A stretch of DNA of 35,927 bases from Anaerolineae bacterium (GCA_015489285.1 WGAA01000230.1:1-35927), one strand, 5' to 3'; shown: positions 1 to 30,852, numbered from the stretch's first letter. Notes: generated by a model not told the origin, from the sequence alone. A program made the numbers and translations.

Positions 1-47
1 GGAGCACTTGATATGCTCCCGCCCGTGTGTTCGGCCCTACTTTCCTA

Positions 48-2924
48 TTACCATGCAATGGTGGGCACAAAGGTGTGGCGTGGCAACGGGTAGATGGCAA
101 AGTCCACCCCCAGAGTAACATTTGCGTCTACTCGCACTTCCCGCTCCATGTCGCCCACGATGTAAACCCCGCCGGGATATACTATACGAACGACATACTC
201 ACCCGGCAACACGTTGGTGAACTCATAAGTCCCTGTGTTGTCCGTCGTCACCTGCCATCCCGGACCACCGTCCTTGGGGATGAGTTGTACGGCGATGCCG
301 GGCACCCCGGGTTCGTCACTGTCCCGTTCGCCATCACGGTCCATATCAGACCACACAACTCCCCGCACGATCCCTGTCGTCGGGGTGGGCGTAGGAGAGG
401 GCGTAAACGTAGGGGTCGGAGTCGGTTCTTTCACCAACCCAAAGTGCAGGTTGAGAATGTGATGACACGGGTGGACCAGAGTCACCCGATGCATTGTGGG
501 ATAAAAGACCGTATACCCTGCCGGGGGTTCAATAGTTACTGTATACTCCCCTAAAGGTATGCCCCCAACCTGCCACCAGCCATGCGCGTTAGAAAGAACC
601 GTTCGATCGACGGGGCCGTGGATGTGGATAACAGCACCGGGGATGCCGGGTTCCCTATAGGGTTGATATGTCATATTTCGGTTCAGGTCCTCATAAACGA
701 CACCTCCTAGTGAAGTGAAGCAGCCTGTAGGAGTGGGTGTCGGTGTGTACGTCGCCGTAGGGGTGGGAGTAGCTGCTGGGGTAGCCGTATAAGTTACGGT
801 GGCCGTGGCCGTGCTCGTGGGCAGCGGCGTCAACGTCGACGTGGCCGTGGCTGTGCTTGTGGGCAGTGGCGTCGAGGTCGATGTCGCCGTAGCCGTGCTC
901 GTGGGCAGCGGCGTCAACGTCGACGTGGCCGTGGCCGTGCTCGTGGGCACTGGCGTAGGGGTCCAAGTTGCCGTGGGTGTATTCGTTGCCGTTGGCGTGT
1001 TCGTGGGTGTAGGGGTCCAAGTAAAGGTGGGCGTTGGTGTTGCCGTTCGAGCTAAGACATAGGCTGCACCGGCACGCGAGTTAACAAAAGGAGCCCCTAC
1101 GAGCGTGTTGTACCCGTTGTTATCTATTCCTACGGAGAAACCAAAACGATCTCCGGCCGCGCCATCAGAAGCCGTGAATTTAGCCTCTTGAACCCAAGAG
1201 GTACCGCTCCGGGCAAACACGTAGGCTGCCCCTTGAGAGGAATTCTTCCCCGGGGCGCCGACTATCACCGTGTCCCCATCACCGGAAAGGGTGACAGATT
1301 GGCCGAAGTAGTCGCCTGCTGCCGTGTCACTGGGCAAGAGTTTGGCCTGTTGGGTCCACGTGGAACCACTTCGTACAAAAATGTAAGCGGCACCTGCATT
1401 CGAATTTTTTCCAAGGGCCCCGATGGCTCCCGTATTACCGTCCTGGGAAAGCGCTGCAACCCAACCGAATTTGTCTCCCGCGACACCGTCACTGGCTAAG
1501 AGTTTGACCTGTTGGCTCCACGTGGAACCACTTCGTACAAAAATGTAAGCGGCACCGCGGTTGGAATCTTTGCCGTAAGCTCCGATTAACGCCGTATTGC
1601 CATCACCGGAAAGGGCCACACCGCGACCGAACCAATCCCCCGCTACGCTGTCATTTGCCGTAAGTTTCGCCTGCTGGTACCACGTCGTTCCACTACGCAC
1701 GAAAATGTAGGCAGCATTTCCTTCATAAGCCCCGATAATGGCCGTATTTCCATCGTATGACAATTTCAGTGTATGACCAAACTTCTCGTCGACACTGACA
1801 CTGGATCCTACAAATTTCGCCTGTTGCGTCCACGTCGTCCCACTGCGAACAAACACGTATGCTGCACCGGTACGATTCGAGCCCACATATGCCTGGAACG
1901 CCCCAACAAGTGCCGTGTTACCGTCGGCGGAAAGGGAGACGGCCCACCCGAAGTAAGCGAAATTGCTGGGATCGCTGGCAACCAGCTTTGCCTGTTGCGT
2001 CCACGTCGTCCCGCTGCGGACAAACACATACGCCGCACCGGCGTCTGGTATACTACCAAGATCGGTGAGATGAGCCCCTACGAGGGCCGTACTTCCATTC
2101 TGTGACATCGCAACGGATACACCCAACCAGTTATTCGAAGCTGCATCCGACGCGACCAACTTTGCCTGTTGTACCCACGGATCTATCCGCAACGGGTAAA
2201 CGGCATGAGCATCATCAACAACCAAGCGGACCTGCCGTCCAACAAGTTCCATGTGAGCCGGGAGGCCTCGGCCCAAGGCATCCACGGCCAAAAGCTCCCG
2301 GTACACAACGTCACCAAATCGAACGCCCCCGGGCACACGCGTTCCCACCCGGTCGGCCTCTACCGTCAGAACCAGAGGACCGGCTCCTTGAGGGCGTTCC
2401 GCCACGGTGAACCCGTGTTCGACCCCCACACTCACGTTACGGTACCACTCGGTGAGAGGGCCATAGGTGTATTGCACCTCGTTACCTTGGATATCAGGAG
2501 GGTGCAGGGGAAGAGAAACAAGGGCTGCAGGACGTCCCCAAGAGACTAAATGCAACCGTACGTTCTCGGTGCTCGCGCGAACGAGGAGCCCTTCCTGGTC
2601 CCAACACACCTGCCAATTTTGAGCTACATTCACCCCACACCCTGTGGAAGTATCGATGTGATATTGAGCCGGGGCTTCACGAGCCAGCACATCGTAATAC
2701 GCCATCTGCAGGTCCGGGTGTAAGATGAATTCTGCCGGACGGGCAAGCGGGGCAGCAACCGGGGGTGATTTCAAGGGTACAGGTCTCGCCGTCGGCCAGG
2801 GAATGTGGACGAGGGTGGCAACGCTCCCCACCACTAAGAAAAAGATGAGTGACAGGACAAGGAAAAAAGTGATGGGGTTTATGGCTCTGACTGTTGGCCG
2901 GGCCACTGCACGGGTGTCTATCAT
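48..2924 (-). CDS. Membrane-anchored FG-GAP (integrin-alpha-like) seven-repeat propeller surface protein with Thr/Pro-rich linkers and two C-terminal SdrD-B/Cna-B-like domains
   Basis: ORF 48..2954. I prefer the ATG at 2924, preceded by GAGAGGAGG. N-terminal hydrophobic anchor [22 protein letters not shown]. Seven tandem repeats of the form QQAKLxASDxxxxDxFGxxVxLSxDGNTAxxGA...[13 protein letters not shown] (FG-GAP signature, ~nt 1040-2160). TP-rich low complexity at ~720-1035. Two distal segments with GVVxxDxxRDGxxDxxEPGxPG...G.Y.F..L..G.Y pattern. Confidence 0.8.
799..963. repeat. 42-bp in-frame tandem repeat (~3.9 copies) inside the FG-GAP gene linker
   Basis: Unit GTGGCCGTGGCCGTGCTCGTGGGCAGCGGCGTCAACGTCGAC, with units starting at 799, 841, 883 and 925 (last partial) and few substitutions. 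Encodes 14-aa [14 protein letters not shown] repeats on the minus strand. Confidence 0.85.
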
Positions 2925-3118
2925 GATTACACCTCCTCTCGGTACTCCTCTCAATAGTTAGGGTTATAAACCTGTCATTAGTTAAGGTATCAAACCACGA
3001 TCCCCAGCCTAAAGTGACGCCATTGTGCCCGGTATGAATATTAATTTTCTATAGTTAAAGATATCTTACAATTGACAGTGCCATTCACCCCGCATAGGGG
3101 GCCATATTTAGATACATA

Positions 3119-3147
3119 ATTACACCATTCGTCATTAAAATTGTCAA
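3119..3147 (-). promoter_or_regulatory. Candidate sigma70-type promoter for the FG-GAP gene
   Basis: Minus strand reads TTGACA (3147..3142), 17-nt spacer, TGTAAT (3124..3119). It lies in the AT-rich spacer ~190 nt upstream of the ATG at 2924. Confidence 0.35.
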
Positions 3148-3475
3148 GTCGGGCAATAAGATAACGATATTCCCGATTTCGATACGATTATCAACGCTAC
3201 GCGGGGATATATCGCGATATTTATGCAGATATATACTACGTCCATACATCTACATTTGATTACGGGGCTGTATTCGAAAGCAAACCGCGGAAACGTGACC
3301 TCTCCAGTAGCGGGGATAACGGATTCCAACATGTATCCCTTCGAAGTTGATATGTCCCCAGGAGAAGATAAAAAATCGAGCGAAGCCCGTCCTTCACACG
3401 CTGGAAGGGGAAACTCAAGAGACGTACCGGTAGCCGTGTAACACGAGGAGAGTGGGGGACCGGGCCAACATCGAA

Positions 3476-7141: not shown

Positions 7142-7256
7142 ACGGGTACCGTTCCCCCACTTCTCCAACGGGCCCGGATCGGGTATACTTAAAAGGGTCG
7201 TGCCCATCGAGAACGACCGGTCCGGCAACGCGCGGCGGAAGGCGAGAAAGGAACCC

Positions 7257-7892
7257 ATGAGACAGGTGCGGATCGTCCTGGTCGACGACCACCAGATCGT
7301 GCGGGAAGGGTTGCGGAGCATCCTCCAACAGGAGCCGTCCTTCGAAGTGGTGGGAGAAACCGGGGACGGAGCGTACGCGGTGACCCTGATTGCTCACCTC
7401 CAGCCGGACATCGCCCTCGTGGACATCCGCCTGCCGGACATGAGTGGCCTGGACGTCTGTCGCCGGGCCGTCGAACTGAGTCCCCGTACCCGGGTCATCA
7501 TCCTCACGGCGTATCTGGACAGCAACCTGGTCCACCAGGCCTTACAGGCAGGGGCACGGGGATACCTCCTCAAAGATGTGGAGCACATGGCCCTCGTCGA
7601 GCGGATTCACCAAGTACTCCAAGGGGAATACGTCTTCGACCCCCGCGTGACCCACACCCTGGCCGAGTACATCGTGCAACACCCACCGGAAGAAGATGAC
7701 ATCCTCCTCTCCGCGCGGGAGCTCGAGATCTTGCGCCTGGTGGCCCAGGGGCTCACCAACGCGGAAATTGCGGACATCCTTTTCCTCAGCCCGGCCACTG
7801 TGAAGGACCACGTCCGAAACATCACGGCCAAATTGGGCGCGCGCAACCGAGTGGAAGCTGTGACCAAAGCCGTCCGTCAGGGGCTTATATAG
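7257..7892 (+). CDS. NarL/LuxR-family two-component response regulator
   Basis: Receiver VRIVLVDDHQIVREGL ... ALVDIRLPDMSG. C-terminal LuxR HTH LSARELEILRLVAQGLTNAEIADILFLSPATVKDHVRNI. ATG 7257 after AAAGGAA; ORF track start 7200 is less likely. Confidence 0.9.
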   Translation: MRQVRIVLVDDHQIVREGLRSILQQEPSFEVVGETGDGAYAVTLIAHLQPDIALVDIRLPDMSGLDVCRRAVELSPRTRVIILTAYLDSNLVHQALQAGARGYLLKDVEHMALVERIHQVLQGEYVFDPRVTHTLAEYIVQHPPEEDDILLSARELEILRLVAQGLTNAEIADILFLSPATVKDHVRNITAKLGARNRVEAVTKAVRQGLI

Positions 7893-9388
7893 TGACCTTA
7901 CGGGAGCACACCATGAACACGGGTAACGTATCTCCGCCGGATAAGCGTCACCTGGGCTACGCGGAACAAGTCCTCGTCCTGCGTCATCGTATCTGGTCCC
8001 GTCTACGACAACACAAGGGCTTCTCCCCGGCCTCGGTCGAAAGTGTCGCCGCCTGTCTCAACCTCATTATGGACGTGCATCAACTGGAGTACCTGGATAA
8101 GCTGTTAGATCAAGTCAACGGTAAAATCAGCGTCCAGCAATTCATCGACACCGTCCTTCGCATCTCCGCGGAAACGCCCCGTCTTCTCAAGAACATCCAG
8201 TTGCCCCCTTCCCCGTTGACCCCGGAAGCCATCGAGAAACTCCTGGCCGAGGAGGATGTGGAGCAGCTCAGACATTTCCTCCGGCAGACCCTCATTCTCA
8301 TCAGCGAGGGATGCACCCTCCTCACCCTCATCAAACGGGGCGACATCTTACAGCGAACCGTCAACACGGCCTGCCAACTGGTGCAAGGTACCATTGGTCT
8401 CGCCTTAGCCATCGGAGAGGGAACGTGCGTGGACCTCGCCACCTGTGGCACGTCGAATCACGTGGAAATCCCTCCCACCCTCGTCCAGGACCTCCTGCCC
8501 CTTCTCGATACCAAAGGGCCGGCACATGTGAGCCGGCCGGAACGTCTTCCTCAACTCCTGCTGGACATCCTCCGGTACGACGAAACCCAGCAGCTCATCA
8601 GCGTCCCCTTGTGGTACCGGGGGAATCCCCGGGGGTACGTCCTTGTCAACGTTCCTGGGGACATTCCCGTACACGAAGAGGATCTCTACATGCTGGCCGC
8701 GCTGGCCCGCCAGGCCTCCTTTGCCCTGGAAAACCTGACCCTTCACTCCCGGGTCGAGGAGCTGGGGCGGATGGAGGAGCGACAACGCATCGCTCAGGAC
8801 CTCCACGACACCGTCGCCCAGTTGCTTTTCGTCATCGGCATGGAAGCGGAGAGCCTCCTGCACGCCATTCCCGAGGATTCCCCCCTGCACCGGCGGGCAT
8901 TGCGCATCCGGCGCATCACCTCCCGGGCCAGCAATGAGCTCCGCTCCGCCATCGCGGCCCTGCGGTCCTACCCCGTCTCCGGGGAGAACACCCTGGCGGA
9001 CGCGCTCCAGCAGACGGCGGAAGAGTGGGAGCGCCTCTCCAAGCTGGACGTCACCCTCGTGCTCCCCTCCCAATGGCCCACCCTGTCCGGCCGGGCCGCG
9101 AGGGCCATCTACCGTGTGGTCCGGGAAGCCCTCATCAACGTGCAGAAACACGCCCACGCTACAGCCGTCGTCATCAGCGTTACCCCCTTCCCCAACCGGC
9201 TGGTCGTCACCGTCCAGGACAACGGCGTTGGCTTCCCCACACACATCTTCCAACTCCTGGAAAGTGACGTGAACTTCGGCCTGAGGACGATGGAACATCT
9301 GGCCGAGGCCGTAGGGGGATACCTGGAACTTTCCAACGGAGAGGATGGCGGGGCGGTGGTGCGCCTTGTGTTGCCTCTGCCCGCGTGA
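7892..9388 (+). CDS. Cytoplasmic sensor histidine kinase (N-terminal sensory region with possible GAF-like fold, HisKA_3, HATPase_c)
   Basis: H-box EERQRIAQDLHDTVAQ, N-box REALINVQKHAHA, G-box VQDNGVGF. No hydrophobic TM segment seen. GTG 7892 overlaps the regulator stop (TAGTG); alternative ATG at 7913. Confidence 0.85.
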   Translation: MTLREHTMNTGNVSPPDKRHLGYAEQVLVLRHRIWSRLRQHKGFSPASVESVAACLNLIMDVHQLEYLDKLLDQVNGKISVQQFIDTVLRISAETPRLLKNIQLPPSPLTPEAIEKLLAEEDVEQLRHFLRQTLILISEGCTLLTLIKRGDILQRTVNTACQLVQGTIGLALAIGEGTCVDLATCGTSNHVEIPPTLVQDLLPLLDTKGPAHVSRPERLPQLLLDILRYDETQQLISVPLWYRGNPRGYVLVNVPGDIPVHEEDLYMLAALARQASFALENLTLHSRVEELGRMEERQRIAQDLHDTVAQLLFVIGMEAESLLHAIPEDSPLHRRALRIRRITSRASNELRSAIAALRSYPVSGENTLADALQQTAEEWERLSKLDVTLVLPSQWPTLSGRAARAIYRVVREALINVQKHAHATAVVISVTPFPNRLVVTVQDNGVGFPTHIFQLLESDVNFGLRTMEHLAEAVGGYLELSNGEDGGAVVRLVLPLPA

Positions 9389-9417
9389 TATCCTCGTAAG
9401 AACGTACGGAGGTCGCC

Positions 9418-10197
9418 ATGCTTTTGGCCGTTGACATCGGGAACAGCGAAGTGACCCTGGGCGTCCACGACGGGACGCGGTGGATTGCCCGCTGGCGCTT
9501 GCGGTCCGTGGTACACGCCACGGCCGATGAATACGCGCTGTGGATCAAAGGCCTCTTCCGCGAGGCCGACATCCCCCTATCCCGGATACGAGGCGTTAGC
9601 CTGGCCAGCGTCGTCCCACCCCTCACCGACACCCTGGGTGAGGTCCTCGAGACCCACTTCGACGCGCCCATGCTCATCGTCAACGCGCACACCCCCATGC
9701 CCATCCGCATCGCCATTGACAAGCCTGAGGAGGTCGGCGCGGATCTCATCGCCAACGTGGTGGCCGCATATCACCGCCTGCGCGCGGCGCACATTGTCGT
9801 CAGTCTGGGGACGGCCACCGTCCTCACCGCGGTCAACGCGCGAGGGGAATTCCTCGGGGCAGCCATTGCCCCGGGATTGCGCATGGCAGCCGCCATCCTC
9901 GCCGAGCGCACGGCTCAGCTTCCGGGCATCCAACTTCAGGCTCCAAGCGCGGCCATCGGCCGAAACACCGTCCAGGCCATGCAAAGCGGCCTCATCCTCG
10001 GCTATGTGGGCCTTATCGAAGGGCTCGTTGCCCGATTCCGGGAGGAAATGGGGACACCCGCCCCTGTCATTGCTACCGGAGGACTCGCCGGTCTCATCGC
10101 CCCACACACCCTCGTCATCGAGCAAGTGGACCCCTGGCTGACGCTGGAGGGTCTACGCCTTCTCGCCGAATACAACCACCTCATTTCGGACAACTGA
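9418..10197 (+). CDS. coaX: Type III pantothenate kinase
   Basis: MLLAVDIGNSEVTLGV N-terminus, C-terminal ATGGLA, ~259 aa. RBS ACGGAGG. Confidence 0.9.
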   Translation: MLLAVDIGNSEVTLGVHDGTRWIARWRLRSVVHATADEYALWIKGLFREADIPLSRIRGVSLASVVPPLTDTLGEVLETHFDAPMLIVNAHTPMPIRIAIDKPEEVGADLIANVVAAYHRLRAAHIVVSLGTATVLTAVNARGEFLGAAIAPGLRMAAAILAERTAQLPGIQLQAPSAAIGRNTVQAMQSGLILGYVGLIEGLVARFREEMGTPAPVIATGGLAGLIAPHTLVIEQVDPWLTLEGLRLLAEYNHLISDN

Positions 10198-10428
10198 AGA
10201 TCCCCGCCATCTCCCCCGGTTTACTCCGTCCTTCCCCCTTCATAACCTCAGGCGATAATCCCTTATTCCGAACTCCGATAAAGAAGTATGTCCCAAATCA
10301 TATCCACTAATAAGAACCCGGGCTTACACTGGTAACAAAATCCACATGTACAAGACGATTGCCTTCCGGACGAGAAAGGCGCTCTGCCCCTCTCGGCCGG
10401 TTCATTATTCTGACCAAGGAGGTCCACA

Positions 10429-11886
10429 GTGAAGCGACGGCATCTATGGGTGTTCGGAGCTGTACTCTTACTCCTCGTGGTCATCGTTCCCATCGCCTAC
10501 AGCCTTCCTCGCGAACGCCCTCCCGACGATCCTCAACGCTACCTGCAACGTCATCCCGTTCCCCTCAATCACAGCAACCTCATTCAAGGCCCCTTCAAAA
10601 CGCCGCAAGACGTGACCAAGGAATGTCTCCGGTGCCATCCGGACGCGGCAAAGGAGGTCATGCAAACGACCCACTGGACGTGGGAGGGCAAACCGGTGAA
10701 AGTGCCCTGGCGAGACGAACCGGTGACCATCGGCAAGAAGAACCAGATCAACAACTTCTGTATCAGTATCATGGGGAACCAGCACACCTGTACCACGTGC
10801 CACGCGGGGTACGGGTGGAGCGAGGACAAGCCCTTCGACTTCTCCAACCCGTACAATGTGGACTGTCTGGCCTGTCACGCGGACATGAGCGTCTATGCCA
10901 AGGGGTTCTCCGGCCTCCCGGCCAAGGGGGTCGACCTGCTGGCTGCGGCCAAGAGTGTTCACAACCCCAAGCGGGAGAACTGCGGTAAATGCCACTTCAA
11001 CGGCGGAGGCGGCAACAACGTCAAACACGGTGACTTGGACCAAAGCCTGCTCCTCCCGCCGCCGGAGCTGGACGTACACATGGGGCGCCTGGACTTCCAG
11101 TGCACGGACTGCCACAGGACCCAACATCACCGCATCAAGGGCCGTCTCCTCGCCGACAACTACACCATCCCCTATGAGGAGCAGGTCCACTGCACCGATT
11201 GCCACAGCCAGAGACCTCACGAGGACGATCGGTTGAACTTCCACACGAAGAGTGTGGCCTGCCAGACGTGCCACATCCCGGAGATGGCTCCCAAGGACCC
11301 CACGAAAATCTTCTGGGATTGGTCTAAAGCGGGCCAGGATCGTCCCGAGGACCATTACACTTACCTGAAGATCAAGGGCGAATTCATCTACAAGCGCCAC
11401 GTCAAACCGGTTTACCGCTGGTTCAACGGCAACAACAAGTACCGCTACATCCTCGGCGACCGCATCGATCCCACGAAACCGACGATTATCGACGAACCGG
11501 CCGGAAAGATCACCGACCCCACCGCGAAGATCTTCCCCTTCAAGATCCACGTGGCCATCCAGCCCTACGACAAGGAGTACAAGTACTTGCTCGCGCCCAT
11601 CACCTCCGGTCCCGGCGGGTTCTGGCACGATTTCGATTGGGATAAGGCCTTCCGCCTGGCCGAACCCATCACCGGGTTGAAGTACAGCGGCAAGTACGGC
11701 TGGACCGAAACGTGGATGTTCTGGCCAACCACACATATGGTTCGACCCGCGAAAGAGGCCCTACAGTGCGAGGACTGCCACGGCCCCAAGGGACGTCTGG
11801 ATTGGAAGGCTCTGGGATATCCGGGCGACCCGAAGGAGTGGGGGGGCCGTTTCCAGCTGAACTTAGTCCCGGAGGGAGAGAAATAG
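10429..11886 (+). CDS. Octaheme c-type cytochrome, tetrathionate-reductase (Otr) family-like
   Basis: Eight CxxCH motifs (CLRCH, CTTCH, CLACH, CGKCH, CTDCH, CTDCH, CQTCH, CEDCH). N-terminal signal/anchor. CHAGYGW and CGKCHFNGGGGNNVKHGDL resemble the Shewanella Otr family as I recall it. GTG start after AAGGAGG. Confidence 0.75.
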   Translation: MKRRHLWVFGAVLLLLVVIVPIAYSLPRERPPDDPQRYLQRHPVPLNHSNLIQGPFKTPQDVTKECLRCHPDAAKEVMQTTHWTWEGKPVKVPWRDEPVTIGKKNQINNFCISIMGNQHTCTTCHAGYGWSEDKPFDFSNPYNVDCLACHADMSVYAKGFSGLPAKGVDLLAAAKSVHNPKRENCGKCHFNGGGGNNVKHGDLDQSLLLPPPELDVHMGRLDFQCTDCHRTQHHRIKGRLLADNYTIPYEEQVHCTDCHSQRPHEDDRLNFHTKSVACQTCHIPEMAPKDPTKIFWDWSKAGQDRPEDHYTYLKIKGEFIYKRHVKPVYRWFNGNNKYRYILGDRIDPTKPTIIDEPAGKITDPTAKIFPFKIHVAIQPYDKEYKYLLAPITSGPGGFWHDFDWDKAFRLAEPITGLKYSGKYGWTETWMFWPTTHMVRPAKEALQCEDCHGPKGRLDWKALGYPGDPKEWGGRFQLNLVPEGEK

Positions 11887-11889
11887 GCC

Positions 11890-14775
11890 ATGACGAATCT
11901 ACGATCTTTCTCACTGCGCACGGGCATATTCTTGACCATCCTGTCGGCCCTGGTCCTGGGCCTCATCTGGGGATTTCCCTACGTCCGGGCCCAGACGGGG
12001 GTCCCTCCTCTCGAGACGGTGACCATTGAGCTCCCACCCAAAGGTTCACCCATGCACCCGCCGTTCCCCATCCTGGACGCGAACGGCGAGCACGTCCTCA
12101 AAAGCGGTCGACCCATGTCCACCATGCGCACGTGCGGCCAATGTCACGATACAAACTTCATCGCCACCCACAGCTACCATGTGGACATGGGCCTTTCGGA
12201 TATACTGCACCGACGCACACCGGCCTCGGGAGAACCGTGGGATGTCTCCAACGGCCCCTTTGGCCGCTGGGATCCCCTGTTCTACAGGTACCTCTCCCAG
12301 CCCGGGGATGAGCGCCTCGACCTGAGCACGGCCGAGTGGATAATGACCCAGGGGATATACCATCCGGGGGGCGGCCCGGCCGAAATCTCCCGGGAGGGAC
12401 AACTGCTGACCCAACTGGAGCCGGACCCCACCCACCCGGAAACGGCCATCCTGGACGCGACCACAGGCCAGGCCAAGCCCTGGGATTGGCGCCGTTCGGG
12501 CACGGTGGAGGTCAACTGCATCCTCTGCCACACGCCCAACCCCAATAACCAGGCACGCATCCAGGCCCTGAAAGAGGGGGCCTTCGCCTGGGCGAACACG
12601 GCCACACTCCTGGGCACGGGCATCGTGGATAAGACCGCGGACGGCTGGCACTGGAATCCCAACGCCTTTGGTCCCGACGGCAAGCTGAAGAAGGCCTTCG
12701 TGACCATCCAGGAACCGTCGAACAAGAACTGTGCCGCCTGCCACGGTCCGGTGCACACCGACCCCAGCCAACCTGCCGTTGTGACCGAACTCAATCCGCA
12801 AACGGCCACCGTGGGCCAGGTGTTCTCCGGACAACGCATCTCCAAATCGGGCATGAACATCCAGGGGAAGGAAAAGCTCACCCGGCCCTGGGACGTCCAC
12901 ATGGACCGAGGACTTTCCTGTGTGGACTGCCACTTTGCCCTGAACAACCCGGCCCAGGCGTGGGAGAAACGGGAAAATCGGCCGCACACCCTCGTGTACG
13001 ATCCGCGGCGTCTGGACATCGGCGACTACCTCAAAACCCCCGTCCACGACTTCGCCCGGGGCGAGACGGCCCAACACCCCCTCGATCCCAAGAGCAAGGG
13101 GACGATGCGGCGGTGTGAGGATTGCCACGATGCCAAACGGGTCCACACAGGTGTGCTCCCGTACGCCAACCGGCACCTGAGCGTTCTGGCCTGTGAAACG
13201 TGCCACATCCCCAAACTGTACGCCCCGGCCATCGAGGCCTACGACTGGACCGTCCTCATGCCCGACAAATCCCCGCGGGTCGTTTACCGGGGGATGGACG
13301 GCCCGGCCCCCATGCCCGGTGGAGACGTCCCGCCGACGGTGGCCAACCTCGTCACCGGTTACACCCCTGTGACCTTGTTACGGCACAACCGCACGGGGAT
13401 GCCCGAACTGACCACGCCGAACTGGCTCTACACCCTCATCGGCACCACGTCAAAAGGTGAACGCACCACCTCTAAGAGCGGTGGCGACTGGATAGCACCT
13501 TACAACCTGATTACCACCTGGTTCTGGGTGTACACCGATGCCAACGGACGGGTGCGCCCCGTTCGGCGCATCGACCTGGAGAAGGCCTGGTTCGACGGGG
13601 ATACCTACGCGGCGGACGTCGTAGCTCTCTTCGACGCGAACCGGGACGGACAACTGAGCCCCGACGAGCTCGTCCTGGACACCAAGGCAAAACGGGATCT
13701 CATCGCCCAACGCCTGGCTGCATTGGGCCTGAAGAACCCACACATCGAGGGGCGTGTTCGCCCGTACAGCGTAAGCCACGACGTCGCGGAGAAGGGGTGG
13801 GCCCTCGAAGAGTGCACGGCCTGCCATAACACCCAATCCCGTCTCACACGCCCCATGCAATTGGCCCCTTACGTGCCTGCGGGGGTCGAGCCCACCTTCG
13901 TCAAGGACACCAATGTGGTCAAGACGGGGCGCATGGTGAAGAAGGAAGATGGCCTCTACCTCCAACCCGACCCCAAGGACTACGGCCTCTACATCTTCGG
14001 CCATGACCGAATCCCCATCATCGACTGGTTTGGGTTCCTCCTCTTCGTCGGCGTCATTCTGGGCGTGAGCGGCCATGCGGCCCTGCGCATCTACGCGGCA
14101 AAGCGGCGGAAACATGCCCACGCCGGCTCGGTGGAAGAGGTCTACCTCTACACGCCCTTCGAGCGATTCTGGCACTGGCTCCAGGCGACGACCATCGGCT
14201 TACTGCTGGTCACCGGGTTGCTCATCCACCGTCCGGACTTCTGGCCGGCCCTGAGCAACTACCGTTACCTCGTCCCCATTCACAACGTCTCCGCGGCCCT
14301 GCTCATCCTGGATGCCTCCCTCTCCCTCTTCTACCACCTGACCACAGGGGCCATCCGGGAGTTCATCCCCAAGCCGCGGGGCTTCTTCGACCAAGCCATA
14401 CAACAGGTCCGTTATTACACCTACGGCATCTTCCGGGGTGAGCCGCACCCCTTCGAGAAGGTGCCCGGACGCAAATTGAACCCGTTACAGCAGGTCACCT
14501 ACTTTGGGCTCCTCAACGTCCTGCTGCCCTTGCAAATGCTCACCGGTCTCCTCATGTGGGGAGAGCAGTATTGGCCCGACGCCATACAGAAGATCGGCGG
14601 GCTCCACACGCTGGCGCCCATCCACTCCCTGGTGGCGTGGCTCTTCGCCTCCTTCGTCGTGGGCCACGTGTACCTCACAACGACCGGCCTGACACCACTG
14701 GAGGACATCCGGGGAATGATCACCGGTTGGGAACGGATAGAGGTGCCCGAGGGCAAGGGAAGCCATGAAGCGTAA
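11890..14775 (+). CDS. Fusion protein: periplasmic heptaheme cytochrome c domain + extra TM + C-terminal FdnI/HydC-type diheme cytochrome b (CbcL-like putative quinol dehydrogenase)
   Basis: Signal peptide. Seven CxxCH (Cys 82, 210, 281, 344, 409, 435, 642). TM at ~aa 712-735. Then four His-bearing helices (FERFWHWLQATTIGLLLVTGLLIH, VPIHNVSAALLIL..FYH, QQVTYFGLLNVLLPLQMLTGLLMW, APIHSLVAWLFASFVVGHVYL) typical of PF01292-type b cytochromes. Starts 3 nt after the octaheme gene. Confidence 0.8.
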   Translation: MTNLRSFSLRTGIFLTILSALVLGLIWGFPYVRAQTGVPPLETVTIELPPKGSPMHPPFPILDANGEHVLKSGRPMSTMRTCGQCHDTNFIATHSYHVDMGLSDILHRRTPASGEPWDVSNGPFGRWDPLFYRYLSQPGDERLDLSTAEWIMTQGIYHPGGGPAEISREGQLLTQLEPDPTHPETAILDATTGQAKPWDWRRSGTVEVNCILCHTPNPNNQARIQALKEGAFAWANTATLLGTGIVDKTADGWHWNPNAFGPDGKLKKAFVTIQEPSNKNCAACHGPVHTDPSQPAVVTELNPQTATVGQVFSGQRISKSGMNIQGKEKLTRPWDVHMDRGLSCVDCHFALNNPAQAWEKRENRPHTLVYDPRRLDIGDYLKTPVHDFARGETAQHPLDPKSKGTMRRCEDCHDAKRVHTGVLPYANRHLSVLACETCHIPKLYAPAIEAYDWTVLMPDKSPRVVYRGMDGPAPMPGGDVPPTVANLVTGYTPVTLLRHNRTGMPELTTPNWLYTLIGTTSKGERTTSKSGGDWIAPYNLITTWFWVYTDANGRVRPVRRIDLEKAWFDGDTYAADVVALFDANRDGQLSPDELVLDTKAKRDLIAQRLAALGLKNPHIEGRVRPYSVSHDVAEKGWALEECTACHNTQSRLTRPMQLAPYVPAGVEPTFVKDTNVVKTGRMVKKEDGLYLQPDPKDYGLYIFGHDRIPIIDWFGFLLFVGVILGVSGHAALRIYAAKRRKHAHAGSVEEVYLYTPFERFWHWLQATTIGLLLVTGLLIHRPDFWPALSNYRYLVPIHNVSAALLILDASLSLFYHLTTGAIREFIPKPRGFFDQAIQQVRYYTYGIFRGEPHPFEKVPGRKLNPLQQVTYFGLLNVLLPLQMLTGLLMWGEQYWPDAIQKIGGLHTLAPIHSLVAWLFASFVVGHVYLTTTGLTPLEDIRGMITGWERIEVPEGKGSHEA

Positions 14776-14809
14776 CCGAGATACGTCATCAGCCATTGGA
14801 GGTGGTTCA

Positions 14810-15367
14810 ATGAAAGGAGAACAGGCACATCGCGAGGCGCGAGGGTGGTTCAATCGGCCCACGAAACCGTACACATACCCCTACTGGGGTGGGATCTTGC
14901 TGGGGATCGTCCTCTTCCTGGCCTTCCTCATCCCGGGAACGGGGCTGGGAGCGTCGGGGGCTCTGGCCGCGGTGGGCGCGTTCATCGTCGACATCATCGC
15001 TCCGGGCCACGTGGACCGGACGCCCATTTTGGCCCACCTGGCCGGTGGCCACAAGAATCCCTTTTCCAGCTGGCTCATCCCCCTGGTCATTGGGATGATT
15101 ATCGGAGGCTTCGTCTCCGGTGTCATCGGCGGACGGGCCAAGTGGGAGACGACTCGCGGTCCTCGCATTTCCGATAAGACCCGCTGGGTCCTCGCGTTCG
15201 TGGGCGGCTTCATCTTCGTCTACGGGGCTCGGATGGCCCGAGGGTGTACGTCGGGCCAAGCACTGACGGGTGGGGCCGTCCTCTCCGCGGGGAGCTGGGC
15301 GATTATGATGGCCATCTTTGCAGGGGCGTACGCGCTGGCGTACTTCCTGCGCAACGTGTGGAATTAA
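14810..15367 (+). CDS. YeeE/YedE-family sulfur-compound transporter, half-size subunit A
   Basis: ARMARGCTSGQALTGG motif and multiple Gly-rich TM helices. ATG 14810 after GGAGGTGG; alternative ATG at 14765 overlaps the upstream stop. Confidence 0.8.
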   Translation: MKGEQAHREARGWFNRPTKPYTYPYWGGILLGIVLFLAFLIPGTGLGASGALAAVGAFIVDIIAPGHVDRTPILAHLAGGHKNPFSSWLIPLVIGMIIGGFVSGVIGGRAKWETTRGPRISDKTRWVLAFVGGFIFVYGARMARGCTSGQALTGGAVLSAGSWAIMMAIFAGAYALAYFLRNVWN

Positions 15368-15388
15368 CCGGCTCGTGAGGAGGCAGCT

Positions 15389-16618
15389 ATGGCGCCTTTT
15401 CCTTTGACTCTGTCCAAACCTCTTCTGTACGTGGTTCTGCTTATTCTGGGCTTTGGTTTCGGCTTTGCCCTGGAAACGTCCGGGTTCAACTACGCGCCCA
15501 ACCTGGCCGCCCAGTTTTACTTCAAGGACACCCGGGTCCTCAAGGTCATGTTCACGGCCATCATCGTGGCCATGGTCCTCGTGTTCCTGGCCGTGGAGAC
15601 GTTCGTCCTGGATTATTCCCTCATCTGGGTGCCCCCCACCTACTTGTGGCCGGGGATCCTGGGCGGGTTGATTATGGGCGTGGGCTTCATCATCGGAGGA
15701 TACTGTCCGGGGACCTCTATGGTCGCCGCGGTGACGGGCAAGATCGACGGGATCTTCTTCGTCCTCGGCGGCATCGCCGGCTGTATCACCTTTTCCGAAA
15801 CGGAGCGGTTCTTCCATTACTTCTATAACGACAGTTACTACGGCCGCCTGACGCTGATGGACGTGTTCCACCTGCCCATTGGGGTCGTTGTGCTCCTCGT
15901 GCTCTTCATGGCCTTCTTCATGTTCTGGATTTCGGAAAAGCTGGAACAGCGGTTCGGGGGGAAGGACCCGGCTCAGGAATCCCGGTTGCGTTACGCGGTG
16001 GCCCTGGTGATCCTCCTGGCCGGTGTGGGCGTCCTCCTCATCGGTGACCCGACGCCGGAACGGGGTTGGGCCCATATCGCTCCCCAGAAGCAACCGCTCC
16101 TGGAAAACCGCAGCGTCTACATTCACCCCGGCGAGGTTCTGAAGTACATCGACGACGACACGGTCGCGGTGGAGTTGATCGACGTCCGGGATGATGCGGC
16201 CTACAACCTGTTCCACCTCTACTGGGCGAAACACGTGCCCCTCGCACGCATAGACACCATCGTGCCCACCCTGGCGAAGAACCCCTACGCGGATTCCACC
16301 CTCGTGGTGGTCATGAGCAACGACGAGACGTTGGCCACGGAAGCGTGGAAGCACCTCGTGGGGGGTAACGTGCCGAACGTGTATATCATGGACGGGGGCC
16401 TGAACCACTGGCTGGAGGTGTTCGGTGAAGAGGATGGGTTGGAACCCCTTCCCGGGCCCTTCGCGGATGAGGAGCTGCACTTCCGCATCCCTCAAGCCAA
16501 AGGGGACGGATTTGCGGCTTCGCAACCTTGGTGGCATCATTATAAAGACGTGTTACAATTTACCCCTAAAGTGAAGCTCCAACGCAAGAAGGCGCCAACA
16601 GGCGGTGGGTGCGGTTAA
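15389..16618 (+). CDS. YeeE/YedE half-size subunit B fused to a Cys-less rhodanese-like domain, with a C-terminal GGGCG tail
   Basis: GGYCPGTSMVA transporter motif and six hydrophobic helices (aa 12-219). Rhodanese pattern LIDVRDDAAYNLFHLYWAKHVP ... LVVVMSNDETLATEAW ... VYIMDGGLNHW, with Met where the catalytic Cys normally sits. Terminal ...KVKLQRKKAPTGGGCG-stop. Confidence 0.8.
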   Translation: MAPFPLTLSKPLLYVVLLILGFGFGFALETSGFNYAPNLAAQFYFKDTRVLKVMFTAIIVAMVLVFLAVETFVLDYSLIWVPPTYLWPGILGGLIMGVGFIIGGYCPGTSMVAAVTGKIDGIFFVLGGIAGCITFSETERFFHYFYNDSYYGRLTLMDVFHLPIGVVVLLVLFMAFFMFWISEKLEQRFGGKDPAQESRLRYAVALVILLAGVGVLLIGDPTPERGWAHIAPQKQPLLENRSVYIHPGEVLKYIDDDTVAVELIDVRDDAAYNLFHLYWAKHVPLARIDTIVPTLAKNPYADSTLVVVMSNDETLATEAWKHLVGGNVPNVYIMDGGLNHWLEVFGEEDGLEPLPGPFADEELHFRIPQAKGDGFAASQPWWHHYKDVLQFTPKVKLQRKKAPTGGGCG

Positions 16619-16652: not shown

Positions 16653-16682
16653 TAGAGCCCGACGCCTTGGCGTCGGGCTCTA
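16653..16682 (+). terminator. Rho-independent-type terminator after the cytochrome/YeeE operon
   Basis: Perfect 14-bp inverted repeat TAGAGCCCGACGCC-tt-GGCGTCGGGCTCTA, followed by CTCGTTTAT (short T-run). Confidence 0.55.
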
Positions 16683-16703: not shown

Positions 16704-17645
16704 ATGCTCAAGTTTTGGGAAAGCCTCATCGGCGGTGTGGCCCAGAAATGGCTGGACCGGCTCATTAGCCCGGCTCTGGCCTTCTGGCTGACGGGGGGAC
16801 TCTTGTACGCGTCCCGCGTGGGATGGGATCGGGTGGAGGAGGTGTTCCGCACCTTGCCCGACTTCGTGACGGTCAGTGTCCTCGCGTTGGCCCTGCTCGT
16901 CGTCGTGGGCTCGGCCACCCTGGTCGAGGGATTGCAGGAGAGTTTGCTCCACTTCCTGGAGGGACATTGGCCCGGCTGGCTGGGGTGGCTTCGCGGTCTC
17001 CTGGTTCGGCGTGAACGTCGTCGCTTTACCCGCGCCCAGGCCCGGCTCCGGGAACTGGCCCAACGCTGGTCCGACCTTACCCCGGAGGAGCGGGAGGAGT
17101 TCACCCGCCTCGACCTCCTCGCCCACTCCTATCCACGCATCTTACCCATCCAACCCACCCGGGTGGGCAACATCCTGCGAGCGGCGGAGGAGTACCCCCA
17201 GCGCCGTTACGGCCTGCGCCCCCGGGTGATCTGGCCCCGCCTGTGGCTCATCCTTCCCGACAGGCCTCGGGGGGAAGTGGCCCAGGCGCGAGAACGCCTC
17301 AACTCGGCCCTGCGCATCATGGTCTGGAGCCTGGCCTTTCTCCTCTGGTGCTATCTGACCATCCCCGGCACTCCCATCATTCGCCCGCGTCCCCCGGTGA
17401 CCGCCCCCGTGTGGGTGGTGCTTGGGGCCTACCTGCGCGTGTGTTGGCCGGCGCTCGTCACCCTTGCAGGCCTTTTGTGGGGGTACAGGCGCGTCGTGGC
17501 CGCAGCGGAAACGTACGGGGACATCCTGCGCGCGGTGTTCGACCTGTACCGGGATGAGCTGTATGAGGCCCTCCGCTGGCCCGAAAAGGGGGAGGAGTGG
17601 GAGCGAGGCCGGGACCTATCCCGGTTCCTCTGGCACGGGAAGTAG
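16704..17645 (+). CDS. Hypothetical membrane protein (313 aa), no family recognised
   Basis: ATG after GGGGGAGGA. Hydrophobic helices at aa ~20-40, 55-75, 215-235 and 250-275, around an Arg/Glu-rich soluble segment (PTRVGNILRAAEEYPQRRYGLRPRVIWPRLW). Confidence 0.6.
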   Translation: MLKFWESLIGGVAQKWLDRLISPALAFWLTGGLLYASRVGWDRVEEVFRTLPDFVTVSVLALALLVVVGSATLVEGLQESLLHFLEGHWPGWLGWLRGLLVRRERRRFTRAQARLRELAQRWSDLTPEEREEFTRLDLLAHSYPRILPIQPTRVGNILRAAEEYPQRRYGLRPRVIWPRLWLILPDRPRGEVAQARERLNSALRIMVWSLAFLLWCYLTIPGTPIIRPRPPVTAPVWVVLGAYLRVCWPALVTLAGLLWGYRRVVAAAETYGDILRAVFDLYRDELYEALRWPEKGEEWERGRDLSRFLWHGK

Positions 17646-28303: not shown

Positions 28304-28406
28304 GCAATAGCCTCCCGGAAGAATGTAGGGGAATCGGGGTGCCATGTGCGCCGACATGGCACCCCGACGAGCGATCCGTCAGAATGGCATCATCCCACGA
28401 GGCCCA

Positions 28407-30641
28407 TTACTGGGGTATCTCGCCGACGACCCCTTCGACGAACCACTTCATGCTCAACATCTCCTCATCGGAGAGACATTGCCCCTCAGGCACCTTCACG
28501 TTGCCGTTCTGGTCCTTGATGGGGCCGCAGAAGACATCCCAGGACCCGTCGATGATCTTCTGCTTCTCCTGCTCGACCAGGGCCTTCACATCGTCGGGGA
28601 CCATATCGCCGTAGGGGCCCAGGTCGACGACCCCGTCGGCCAGACCACCCCAGTACGGTGTCGGATCGAATTTGCCGGCCTGAATGTCCTTGACGACCTT
28701 GGTGTAGTACACACCCCAGTGCCAGACGGGACCGGTGAGCACGGCCTTGGGGGCGAAAGAGCGCATATCCGAGTTATAGCCGATGCCGTAGGCCCCGTGG
28801 TCCTGGGCGGCCTGCATGGGAGCCGGCGTATCCTGGTGCTGGGCGATTACATCCACGCCCGAGGAAAGGAGCGTCTCCGCGGCCTCCCGCTCCGTGGGCG
28901 GATCGTACCACGTGTTCGTCCACACGACTTGGACGGTCGCGTTGGGATTGACCTTACGCACTCCCAGGGTGAAGGCGTTGATCCCGCGGATGACCTCGGG
29001 AATGGGGAAAGCGGCCACGTAGCCGATCTTGTTGCTCTTCGTCATCTTGCCGGCTACAAGGCCAGAGAGATAGCGCGGTTGATACATGCGGCCGAAGTAG
29101 TTGGTGAAATTCTTGCCGTTGGACTTGTACCCGGAGCAATGCAACCAGTAGACATCGGGATACTCCTCGGCCAGAGCCGCCATCGTGTCCATGTAGCCGA
29201 AGGAGGTCCCGAAGATGACGTCATATCCCTTCTCCGCGAAATCGCGGAAAACGCGCTCGGCATCGGCGCCCTCGGGCACGCTCTCCACATACGCCGTCTC
29301 CACGTTGGGGACGTTCTTCTCCAGCTCCAGACGTCCCTGATCGTGGGCATAGGTCCAACCCGCGTCACCAATGGGGCCCACGTAGACGAACGCGGCCTTG
29401 ATCGGCTTGGCCTCCGCGCCCGACTCGGCAGGGGCTTCTGCCTTCTTCTCCTCCGCCTTGGGAGGTTCCTCGCCGCCGGGGATCTCGCCGATCACGCCCT
29501 TGACGAACCACTTCATGTTCCAAATCTGCTCCCAGGAGAGGCTATCCCCCTCGGCCACGGCGAGCTGTCCGTTCTGGGCGTAGATGGGCCCGGCCCCCAC
29601 ATCGAGTTCGTGAGAGACGATCTTCTTCTTGAGCTCGCTCACCTTTTCCTTGATGGCGTCATCCGCGGCCGGACCGAACTTGAAGTCCACGATGCCGGTA
29701 TCCGCATCCCACCAGGAATCGGGCAGCCCACGCGGCTTGAACGTGCCCTCCTTCACCTCCTTGAGGATCTCCGCGTAAGCAACGCCCCAATTCCAATGAG
29801 GCACACCGATGCACCCGGCGCCCGCGAGCTCACACGCGTTGGGGCTGTCGTAGGCCATGCCCCATTTGCCCTTCTCCGTGGCCGCCTGGACGGGGCCGGG
29901 CGTGTCGGACCCGGTGATGATGACATCCGCGCCTGCGGCCAGCAGGGTTTCCGCGGCCTCACGCTCTGTGGGCGGGTCGTACCAGGAGTTGATCCACACG
30001 ACCTGGACCTGGATGTCGGGGTCTACGCTGTGGGCCCCCAGGGTGACGAAGTTGATATGCCGGATGACCTCAGGAATGGGGAAGGGGGCGACATACCCCA
30101 GCTTCTTGGTTTTCGTCTTCATGGCCGCGGCCACGCCGGCCAGGTACTTCATCTTGTACATGCGGCCGAAGAGGTTGTCGAAATTCGTGTCGTTCCACTT
30201 GTACCCCGAGACGTGAATCCACACGGTGTCGGGATATTCCTGGGCCAGCTTCTCCATCGTGTCCATGTAGCCGAAGGAGGTTCCGAAAATGACATCGTAC
30301 CCCTTCTCCGCGAACTCGCGGAAGACGCGCTCGGCGTCGGCTCCTTCGGGCACGCTCTCCACGTACGTGGTCTCCACATCGGGCATGACCTTTTCCACGT
30401 ACTTGCGTCCCAAATCGTGGGCATAGGTCCACCCCGCATCACCGATGGGGCCGACGTACACCCAGGCGGCTTTGAGCTTCTTCCCCCCCTCTTTTTCGGC
30501 CTGAGCGGGCTGTGTCGGTTGGGTTGCGCCCATGGTCTGGGCCGGGGCGGGTTTCGTGGGCGTCGGGGTGGCTTTGGAACAAGCGCCTACCACCAAAGCG
30601 ATGAGCAGGACGAGCAGTACAACTCCCCACAGACGGCGCAT
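28407..30641 (-). CDS. Lipoprotein with two tandem BMP-family (Med/PnrA-like) substrate-binding domains
   Basis: Signal + lipobox LLIALVVGAC. Two ~330-aa copies (nt ~29477-30479 and ~28410-29402) share VYVGPIGDAGWTYAHD and VESVPEGADAERVFR-FAEKGYDVIFGTSFGYMDTM. They are joined by a PPKAEEKKAEAPAESGAEAKP linker. ATG 30641 after AAGGAGAAGGAGG. Confidence 0.85.
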   Translation of the reverse strand: MRRLWGVVLLVLLIALVVGACSKATPTPTKPAPAQTMGATQPTQPAQAEKEGGKKLKAAWVYVGPIGDAGWTYAHDLGRKYVEKVMPDVETTYVESVPEGADAERVFREFAEKGYDVIFGTSFGYMDTMEKLAQEYPDTVWIHVSGYKWNDTNFDNLFGRMYKMKYLAGVAAAMKTKTKKLGYVAPFPIPEVIRHINFVTLGAHSVDPDIQVQVVWINSWYDPPTEREAAETLLAAGADVIITGSDTPGPVQAATEKGKWGMAYDSPNACELAGAGCIGVPHWNWGVAYAEILKEVKEGTFKPRGLPDSWWDADTGIVDFKFGPAADDAIKEKVSELKKKIVSHELDVGAGPIYAQNGQLAVAEGDSLSWEQIWNMKWFVKGVIGEIPGGEEPPKAEEKKAEAPAESGAEAKPIKAAFVYVGPIGDAGWTYAHDQGRLELEKNVPNVETAYVESVPEGADAERVFRDFAEKGYDVIFGTSFGYMDTMAALAEEYPDVYWLHCSGYKSNGKNFTNYFGRMYQPRYLSGLVAGKMTKSNKIGYVAAFPIPEVIRGINAFTLGVRKVNPNATVQVVWTNTWYDPPTEREAAETLLSSGVDVIAQHQDTPAPMQAAQDHGAYGIGYNSDMRSFAPKAVLTGPVWHWGVYYTKVVKDIQAGKFDPTPYWGGLADGVVDLGPYGDMVPDDVKALVEQEKQKIIDGSWDVFCGPIKDQNGNVKVPEGQCLSDEEMLSMKWFVEGVVGEIPQ

Positions 30642-30852
30642 GGTGACCCTCCTTCTCCTTGGTCGTCCTTCTTTGAACTCGCGTTCCATACCTTGGGTGA
30701 CGTCTCGACATCCTCCGTGTTCGGCAAAAGATCGGCCTCATGTCCCCATCGCGCCGAGATCATCACCCTGTGACCTCGGTCATGAAAAGAGCCCGTCACG
30801 CCCTTTTGACATCGCCGAGGTACACCCAAACACGCGGGGAATCACGAATGTA

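Follow-up and report, generated by a model that had tools for sequence, protein, structure and literature searches.

The stretch of DNA analyzed here, in the following referred to as the window, comprises 35,927 nucleotides (nt) from an Anaerolineae bacterium (GCA_015489285.1, WGAA01000230.1:1-35927) and constitutes a complete contig of a metagenome-assembled genome. It carries four consecutive genes for an octaheme cytochrome c of the octaheme tetrathionate reductase (Otr) family, a fusion of a heptaheme cytochrome c with a membrane cytochrome b, and two half-size YeeE/YedE membrane proteins, YeeA and YeeB, the latter extended by a rhodanese-fold domain and a cysteine-bearing tail (Table 1). 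An earlier interpretation of the locus, made without database searches and hereafter called the sequence-only reading, had described the four genes as an operon packed with gaps of 3, 34, and 21 nt and closed by a strong hairpin. The coordinates of the four open reading frames (ORFs) agreed exactly with these gaps, and a Shine-Dalgarno sequence of the GGAGG type was found ahead of all four starts. In the case of yeeA, a longer ORF opens at 14765; the 185-residue start was also picked by the gene callers on a 99%-identical relative. The hairpin lies 36 nt past the last stop codon (stem 16654-16665/16670-16681), and the calculated folding energy of its region is -36.5 kcal/mol, with z = -2.4 versus shuffled sequences.

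Table 1. Features of the four-gene operon and their positions in the window
Feature	Coordinates	Strand	Remarks
Spacer, presumed promoter	10198-10428	+	Non-coding; Shine-Dalgarno AAGGAGG ahead of GTG 10429
otr, Otr-family octaheme cytochrome c	10429-11886	+	485 residues; GTG start
Fusion protein, whole	11890-14775	+	961 residues
Fusion protein, heptaheme c part (N-terminal)	11890-14001	+	
Fusion protein, cytochrome b part (C-terminal)	14002-14775	+	PF01292
YeeA, half-size YeeE/YedE	14810-15367	+	185 residues; PF04143
YeeB, whole	15389-16618	+	409 residues
YeeB, membrane part	15389-16045	+	PF04143
YeeB, rhodanese-fold domain	16046-16588	+	PF00581; predicted extracytoplasmic
YeeB, flexible tail GGGCG-COOH and stop codon	16589-16618	+	
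Terminator-like hairpin, operon end	16654-16681	+	12-bp GC-rich stem, CUUG loop, weak U tract

Domain architecture of the four proteins

The product of the first gene matched the profile TIGR04315 (tetrathionate reductase family octaheme cytochrome c) with 548.5 bits at a cutoff of 375, covering positions 2-440 of the 440 profile positions, and was also recognized by PF11783 in the hidden Markov model (HMM) scan. It aligned end to end with the structure of S. oneidensis Otr (PDB 1SP3; E = 1.1e-129). Eight CXXCH motifs are present in the window protein and in 79/79 orthologs, and the N-terminus is predicted to form a signal peptide or a membrane anchor. Lys103 and Cys111 in the segment GKKNQINNFC align with Lys56 and Cys64 in GKKNSINNFC of 1SP3, and the pattern G-K-x-N-x-x-N-N-F-C is at least 95% conserved among the 79 orthologs. 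Mowat et al. (2004) reportedly assigned Lys56 of 1SP3 as the axial heme ligand at the active site and Cys64 as the active-site cysteine. The profile score, the match to 1SP3, and the conserved equivalents of Lys56 and Cys64 place the protein inside the Otr family, to which the sequence-only reading had noted a resemblance. Judged by its sequence, the protein is a genuine Otr-type octaheme enzyme with the lysine-heme (Lys-heme) motif.

The second protein is predicted to start with a signal anchor (residues ~9-37) that leads into a heptaheme c domain outside the cytoplasm. The cysteines of its seven CXXCH motifs (C82, C210, C281, C344, C409, C435, and C642) are invariant in a 21-sequence alignment, and 78 of 80 orthologs have seven such motifs. 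The same alignment revealed eight further invariant histidines in the outer domain, enough for bis-histidine ligation of all seven hemes. A profile-profile comparison with HHalign aligned residues 266-653 of the fusion protein with residues 170-458 of Otr at a probability of 97.7% (E = 1.5e-12), such that hemes 3-7 of the former correspond to hemes 4-8 of the latter. The Lys-heme motif GK.N..NNFC is absent from the fusion protein. Because the profiles are homologous and the motif is gone, the heptaheme "wire" is a degenerate Otr paralog without the Lys-heme site. A sequence search of the PDB with the fusion protein gave a weak local Otr match only, and its AlphaFold2 model was poor, with a mean predicted local distance difference test (pLDDT) value of 64 and values below 50 in the heme-rich core. 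The heme domain also contains an EF-hand-like loop, FDANRDGQLSPDEL (window positions 13630-13671, residues 581-594), for which the match to PF13202 is weak. Residues D582, L589, E593, and L594 of this loop are invariant in the family, and by analogy with other multiheme enzymes it may be a Ca2+ site.

The C-terminal part of the fusion protein matched PF01292 with 82.3 bits (gathering cutoff 30.1; residues 754-946) and corresponds to a five-helix membrane cytochrome b. The seven CXXCH motifs and this score confirm the earlier description of seven c hemes joined to an FdnI/HydC-type b-cytochrome. The closest NCBIfam model was that of PhsC (NF011582) with 141.8 bits, which is under the cutoff of 204. 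Five histidines, His762, His798, His816, His912, and His926, are invariant in the 21 sequences, the last two being 14 residues apart, and these membrane histidines are candidate ligands for two b hemes. No genes for a molybdopterin or Fe-S subunit, the phsA/phsB partners, were found in the module.

The third and fourth proteins both belong to PF04143 and match complementary halves of this profile, which corroborates their identification as two half-size YeeE/YedE proteins: YeeA covers profile positions 162-309 (C-terminal half, 73 bits) and YeeB positions 9-180 (N-terminal half, 60 bits). The ARGCTSG motif of YeeA and the GGFCPxTS motif of YeeB are each at least 95% conserved. The cysteine of the former corresponds to StYeeE Cys293 at the outer side, and Cys106 in the latter to StYeeE Cys91 at the inner side; both StYeeE residues, located in loops LD and LB, respectively, are functionally essential (PMC7449682, PMC11582611). 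Li et al. have described PmpA and PmpB as split YeeE halves, the Pmp proteins comprising ~130 residues (PMC11582611). By sequence, YeeA and YeeB are a split YeeE channel of the PmpA/PmpB type to which each protein contributes one channel cysteine, although both are larger than the Pmp proteins. The TsuA models gave 33 and 22 bits on the YeeE halves, as compared to cutoffs of 400 and 645.

The C-terminal domain of YeeB matched PF00581 with 39.5 bits. AlphaFold2 modeled residues 220-400 with pLDDT values above 90, and all top Foldseek matches were rhodanese folds. Opposite the catalytic cysteine of 6MXV, YeeB has a methionine; the corresponding loop, M-S-N-D-E, is invariant in 14 diverse members and lacks cysteine, and no active-site-loop cysteine occurred in any YeeB ortholog examined. 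Therefore, we rejected a role of the domain as a catalytic sulfurtransferase. The sequence-only reading of a rhodanese-like domain with a cysteine tail thus holds for the fold and for the tail cysteine, with the refinement that the domain is not a catalytic rhodanese. Apart from the channel cysteine, the penultimate residue Cys408 is the sole conserved cysteine of YeeB. All 69 complete YeeB orthologs examined, including that of the window with its GGGCG terminus, end in GGCG-COOH, and some stand-alone relatives of the domain end in GGCGG. The pLDDT value of ~56 suggests that the tail is flexible. In SoxY, sulfur is carried by a swinging arm containing GGC, which is taken as a functional motif (PMC11237559), and by analogy Cys408 is a candidate for a sulfur-carrying swinging arm. 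Homology of the C-terminal part of YeeB with SoxY was also considered but rejected. The domain has a rhodanese fold and gave no SoxY or SoxZ Pfam match; the likeness to SoxY is thus one of analogy and not of membership.

StYeeE runs from an outer N-terminus to an inner C-terminus, its two halves being inverted relative to each other by means of helix H7 (PMC7449682). YeeA is predicted to have both termini inside, whereas YeeB is predicted to possess an H7-equivalent helix (residues 164-182) and an extra helix (residues 200-218) that returns the chain to the outside. The mean number of lysines plus arginines in consecutive YeeB loops is 0.29, 2.41, 0.03, 1.39, and 4.59 (69 orthologs), and the C-terminal domain is net acidic. 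Given these alternating loop charges, YeeB is expected to start outside and to expose its C-terminal domain on the same side. The stand-alone homologs of the latter begin with a short basic stretch, one hydrophobic helix of ~20 residues, and the pattern G-[QDE]-P-[TS], together a classical signal anchor by sequence. On the basis of the loop charges, the homology to StYeeE, and these signal anchors, the rhodanese-fold domain and its cysteine arm probably face the compartment in which Otr and the heptaheme domain reside. A location on the Otr side makes an arm that carries a substrate or product more likely than a cytoplasmic acceptor.

Conservation and genomic context of the module

Gene neighborhoods were searched from two anchors. 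The genome census started from the fusion protein, with one genome per species, and yielded at least 565 loci; the metagenome census started from the arm domain, i.e., the rhodanese-fold domain with its cysteine tail, and yielded at least 517 relatives. The best 80 were examined in each case. All 80 genome loci were from metagenome-assembled genomes (MAGs) of Chloroflexota. By tblastn, otr was located directly upstream of the fusion gene in 79/80 loci and yeeA downstream in 79/80, while the membrane part of YeeB was detected in 73/80 and the rhodanese part in 68/80. The gene order was constant, and genes were absent only at contig ends. Metagenome loci with at least 6.5 kb of upstream sequence contained otr, the heptaheme domain, cytochrome b, yeeA, and yeeB in this order in 26/26 cases; both YeeE halves were present in 58/58 and heme proteins in 37/37. 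The proposed association of the four families therefore extends well beyond the window and greatly exceeds chance: two anchors recovered a constant module, which is kept across hundreds of genomes.

In the protein collection, more than 1,400 sequences are related to the fusion protein. Of these, the top 120 were nearly all full length and 51-99% identical, with a few truncated fragments; organism names, given for few of them, were Chloroflexi, Anaerolineae, or Caldilineaceae. The JGI label for these relatives is 'thiosulfate reductase cytochrome b subunit'. One of them, P0001, is 99% identical and encoded in the MAG GCA_054007475.1; an exact look-up of the 961-residue window protein gave no match.

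Profile searches with the arm domain also retrieved stand-alone proteins of ~205-225 residues that end in GGCG or GGCGG. At two loci (L084 and L086), the module consists of six separate genes in the same order with tight or overlapping junctions, coding for Otr, a cytochrome with seven CXXCH motifs (597-677 residues), a PF01292 cytochrome b (218-226 residues), two YeeE halves, and an anchored arm protein. A third contig (L088) starts inside the multiheme gene (582 residues shown, six CXXCH motifs), so that otr is outside its coverage, and continues in the same order with cytochrome b (215 residues), two YeeE halves, and the arm protein. An intermediate state, in which the heme domain and cytochrome b are fused and the arm is separate, was found at locus L091. 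An exhaustive HMMER search grouped the arm-domain family into 167 clusters at 50% identity (E <= 1e-30). Among the best 150 representatives, a GCG or GCGG end occurred in 62 of 72 sequences of stand-alone length and in 37 of 38 of fused length. Fusion of the same parts in different combinations is classic evidence of association and points to one physical or functional unit. At the level of sequence, this argues for the module components forming one complex. Upstream of otr, L084 carries a divergent pair of genes for an 11-CXXCH cytochrome and a molybdopterin oxidoreductase (positions 1-3289 of that locus).

In most relatives, a gene for an ArsR/SmtB protein of ~115 residues (PF01022, 68 bits) with one invariant cysteine (LEADFCSALSDPTR) lies directly upstream of otr. 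Clustering detected it in 59/80 genome loci (e.g., L073 and L014), with same-strand placement ahead of otr in 58 of them, and a targeted search recovered it in 63/80; among the metagenome loci, 20/26 have it. The YeeE-like SoxT supplies cytoplasmic sulfur and signals to the repressor SoxR (PMC11582611). By analogy, the ArsR-type repressor with its invariant cysteine could sense imported sulfur in most relatives. Genes identified by eye as a DUF59/MIP18 Fe-S assembly-like protein, a SufR-like regulator, and SufC were located 1-2.5 kb upstream of otr in ~20/80 loci; these suf-like genes may be linked to the sulfur supply for Fe-S assembly, but probably reflect lineage synteny. A divergent cupin-XRE regulator was observed in 33/80 loci.

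The flanks of the operon in the window consist of unrelated housekeeping genes. Upstream, positions 7200-10197 encode a LuxR-type response regulator, a GAF/HisKA_3 histidine kinase, and type III pantothenate kinase (coaX). We decided against including the two-component system and coaX in the unit: none of the 80 genome loci has the flanking genes of the window beside the module at that position (weak, distant two-component matches occurred in 5), and elsewhere the arrangement was found only in the 99%-identical relative (L081). It is thus probably outside the conserved unit. Directly past the terminator, a 313-residue ORF (16704-17645) has no Pfam match and is not kept beside the module elsewhere; a DJ-1/PfpI gene follows. 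More distant genes encode ABC transporters, carbamate kinase, and ornithine carbamoyltransferase. Two long ORFs on opposite strands, 28344-30773 (+) and 28407-30689 (-), overlap completely, the plus-strand ORF (809 residues) being without a Pfam match. The region 48-2954 (-) encodes a secreted-type protein of 968 residues with seven FG-GAP repeats and SdrD B-like/CarboxypepD_reg domains. No RNA family was detected in the window with Rfam, nor any tRNA with a tRNA scan.

Direction of electron flow and substrate

We propose that the four genes encode one membrane-anchored extracytoplasmic complex for sulfur redox chemistry and import, which operates in the reductive direction, and assign this model a probability of roughly 50%. 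According to the model, menaquinol would be oxidized at cytochrome b, and the electrons would reach Otr via a chain of two b hemes and seven c hemes. Otr would then reductively split an S-S bond in an oxidized sulfur species, e.g., polysulfide, tetrathionate, or a different polythionate. This species could occur in free form or be held by Cys408 in a mixed disulfide or thiosulfonate. Tetrathionate is a thiol-modifying reagent, which makes an adduct at Cys408 chemically plausible. The arm would pass the retained sulfur, at the sulfane or thiosulfate level, to the outward cysteine of YeeA, and the YeeA/YeeB channel would relay it via the inward cysteine of YeeB into the cytoplasm, where in most relatives the ArsR-type repressor could sense it. 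Chloroflexota are generally regarded as monoderm, and in the absence of an outer membrane it would be fitting for all components to be fused to membrane proteins.

We infer the direction of electron flow and the nature of the substrate from the following observations. The reductive direction is favored because the best match of the cytochrome b is the quinol-oxidizing PhsC. The proposed electron path from quinol via b hemes and c hemes to Otr, as drawn in the sequence-only reading, fits the architecture. The invariable link to a sulfur channel and a cysteine arm favors sulfur substrates over nitrite and hydroxylamine, so that the sulfur side of the previously suggested list of tetrathionate, sulfite, nitrite, and hydroxylamine gains weight at the expense of the latter two. 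In sediment microcosms, otr was induced 36-fold by tetrathionate, and the tetrathionate/thiosulfate couple is quoted as +198 mV (PMC8528874). In the sulfur-oxidizing symbionts of lucinids, genes for soxY and soxZ adjoin otr. The rhodanese-like Sud of Wolinella, which serves a polysulfide reductase, and SoxT with its sulfur supply to the cytoplasm (PMC11582611) add to the case for a sulfur substrate.

A further, tentative idea, which we hold with clearly less confidence than the model itself, is that Otr-type cytochromes act physiologically on protein-tethered sulfur and not on free anions. With its GGCG arm, the membrane-anchored rhodanese-fold protein would offer polythionate or polysulfide, attached to the cysteine, to the Lys-heme site and, after the reduction, pass the retained sulfur directly into the YeeE channel. 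If this reading is true, the module would represent a previously unrecognized 'reduce-and-import' machine, analogous to SoxYZ but evolutionarily independent of it, that is widespread in Chloroflexota and occurs in unfused form in other lineages (mostly metagenome contigs).

Several observations weigh against the proposed complex. Cytochromes b of the PF01292 family work in both directions, and the PhsC score is under its cutoff. In vitro, nitrite and hydroxylamine are also substrates of S. oneidensis Otr, an enzyme whose physiological role is regarded as unclear (PMC10949509). The likeness of the YeeB tail to SoxY is confined to the last residues, and the conserved neighbors of the module do not include a gene for a cytoplasmic acceptor such as the TusA-like TsuB/YeeD. 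The window and its 99%-identical relative have coaX and a 230-nt spacer where most relatives have the ArsR-type gene. A complete genome of Ca. Latescibacterota (CP070631; locus L090, positions 8942-10657) encodes the YeeE halves, called as three short genes and possibly frameshifted, together with a stand-alone arm ending in GGCGG, and no otr or cytochrome b gene was detected within 9 kb of them. The sub-module of transporter and arm can thus stand alone and does not strictly need Otr. Finally, no cultured carrier of the module was identified among the cluster members.

The same complex might alternatively run in the oxidative direction. Otr would oxidatively couple sulfide or thiosulfate with the cysteine of the tail, by analogy with SoxXA acting on SoxY, the electrons would flow from the c hemes via the b hemes to menaquinone, and YeeA/YeeB would import the sulfane for assimilation or cytoplasmic oxidation. 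The oxidation of sulfide to sulfane can thermodynamically reduce menaquinone, and PF01292 includes quinone reducers such as FdnI. The SoxY-like arm, the proposed entry of SoxYZ-bound sulfane via the YeeE-like SoxT1A (PMC11582611), and the soxY/soxZ-otr neighborhood of the symbionts are likewise compatible with oxidation. However, the relation of the cytochrome b to the quinol-oxidizing PhsC points the other way, characterized Otr activities are reductions, and no sHdr, Dsr, or Sox genes occur among the conserved neighbors. Moreover, the couple at +198 mV (PMC8528874) lies far above menaquinone, so that electrons would have to move uphill from thiosulfate to the quinone. By analogy to the Sox system such a reversal is conceivable, yet we consider it rather unlikely.

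The remaining alternatives concern the substrate. The redox half could act as a quinol-dependent nitrite or hydroxylamine reductase in detoxification or respiration, with the YeeE pair as a separate importer that merely shares the operon. This would agree with the in vitro activities of S. oneidensis Otr (PMC10949509), with surveys that class OTR with nitrite reductases, and with the YeeE-plus-arm locus without otr in the one Latescibacterota genome. But an unrelated importer would hardly account for an order and adjacency that is constant in all informative loci from two independent anchors, for the tight or overlapping junctions in the unfused loci, or for an arm on the same side as Otr; besides, nitrogen-metabolism genes are lacking among the conserved neighbors. 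We therefore regard a nitrogen-reducing module as improbable. An even smaller chance is given to a selenium or tellurium module, in which an oxyanion would be reduced extracellularly and the chalcogen taken up via a YedE-like channel. Selenium protein YedE/FdhT is indeed among the best NCBIfam matches of both YeeE halves, and a YedE-like protein transports selenium in Methanococcus (PMC11582611). These matches are very weak, however (~31-34 bits versus a cutoff of 350), and no better than those of TsuA. The conserved neighbors comprise no selD, selA, or yedF, and a demand for selenium would not explain the respiratory-scale electron input of 15 hemes. Thus, the reductive sulfur redox and import complex remains our preferred model.

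Relation to known systems

In the published literature, we found no description of the module, the fusion of heptaheme cytochrome and cytochrome b, its paralogy to Otr, the link to a split YeeE, or the family of GGCG-tailed rhodanese-fold proteins, in agreement with the earlier suspicion that the gene combination is undescribed. The structure of Otr was reportedly solved in 2004. The gene is used as a marker in Anaerolineae and many other MAGs, and surveys count it as a marker of tetrathionate reduction, while the physiological substrate and electron donor of the enzyme are still called unclear. Judged by sequence conservation, the module would provide Otr with a dedicated quinol-linked donor and a constant sulfur-trafficking partner in at least 500 species-level Chloroflexota genomes. 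It makes the question of substrate and donor testable and offers a real chance to reveal how Otr-type enzymes may work in vivo. With the arm domain, an apparently undescribed family is defined, namely extracytoplasmic rhodanese-fold proteins that carry a GGCG arm at the C-terminus. Its members could account for sulfur delivery from the outer side to channels of the YeeE/PmpAB type, at present a gap, and provide an example of a carrier arm independent of SoxY. Chloroflexota are abundant in sediments, the subsurface, and wastewater. If the model is true, the annotation of the turnover of sulfur-cycle intermediates in Anaerolineae-rich environments would change.

The window Otr shares the eight CXXCH motifs, the Lys56/Cys64 equivalents, and full-length alignment with Otr of S. 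oneidensis. For the latter, the literature found describes neither a heptaheme/cytochrome b partner nor a YeeE-arm partner, whereas the window type of Otr is always encoded together with both. A cluster of 'Otr plus cytochrome b561' in Ignavibacteria Ch128a likewise has otr beside a PF01292 cytochrome b and was read as a quinol-linked terminal reductase (PMC7509429). Its description mentions no heptaheme intermediary, YeeE halves, or arm, while the cytochrome b of the window is fused to seven c hemes. With the diheme cytochromes b PhsC, FdnI, and HybB, a family that couples the quinone pool to periplasmic redox enzymes, the window domain shares the membrane fold and probably the conserved histidine pattern. 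In contrast to them, it scores under the PhsC cutoff, lacks a molybdopterin/Fe-S partner, and is fused to a multiheme domain of 660 residues.

YeeA and YeeB have PF04143 and the two essential cysteines in common with YeeE/TsuA, PmpA/PmpB, and SoxT1A/SoxT1B, and they are split in the same way as PmpB (N-terminal half) and PmpA (C-terminal half). The ArsR-type neighbor in most relatives recalls the soxSRT arrangement. Unlike YeeE/TsuA, the window halves are far under the TsuA/YedE equivalog cutoffs, have no TsuB/YeeD partner, and reside in an operon of respiratory cytochromes; furthermore, YeeB carries two additional helices and an external domain.

The tail of YeeB resembles that of SoxY in its glycine-flanked cysteine at the extreme C-terminus and in being a predicted flexible extracytoplasmic segment that is presumably presented to a multiheme enzyme. 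Its scaffold, however, is a rhodanese fold tethered to a membrane transporter and not the Ig-like fold of SoxY, and no soxZ was found in the flanks of the module loci. Another related protein is Sud of Wolinella succinogenes (PDB 1QXN), a periplasmic rhodanese-like polysulfide-sulfur transferase that feeds polysulfide reductase. The arm domain shares with Sud the extracytoplasmic rhodanese fold and the proposed delivery of sulfur to a respiratory reductase, the sequence match being weak (E = 0.34). Sud is soluble and has the canonical active-site-loop cysteine, whereas the only conserved cysteine of the window domain is in the C-terminal tail. Every component of the module is from a known family, and its logic, a quinol dehydrogenase that feeds a multiheme reductase in combination with sulfur carriers, is familiar.

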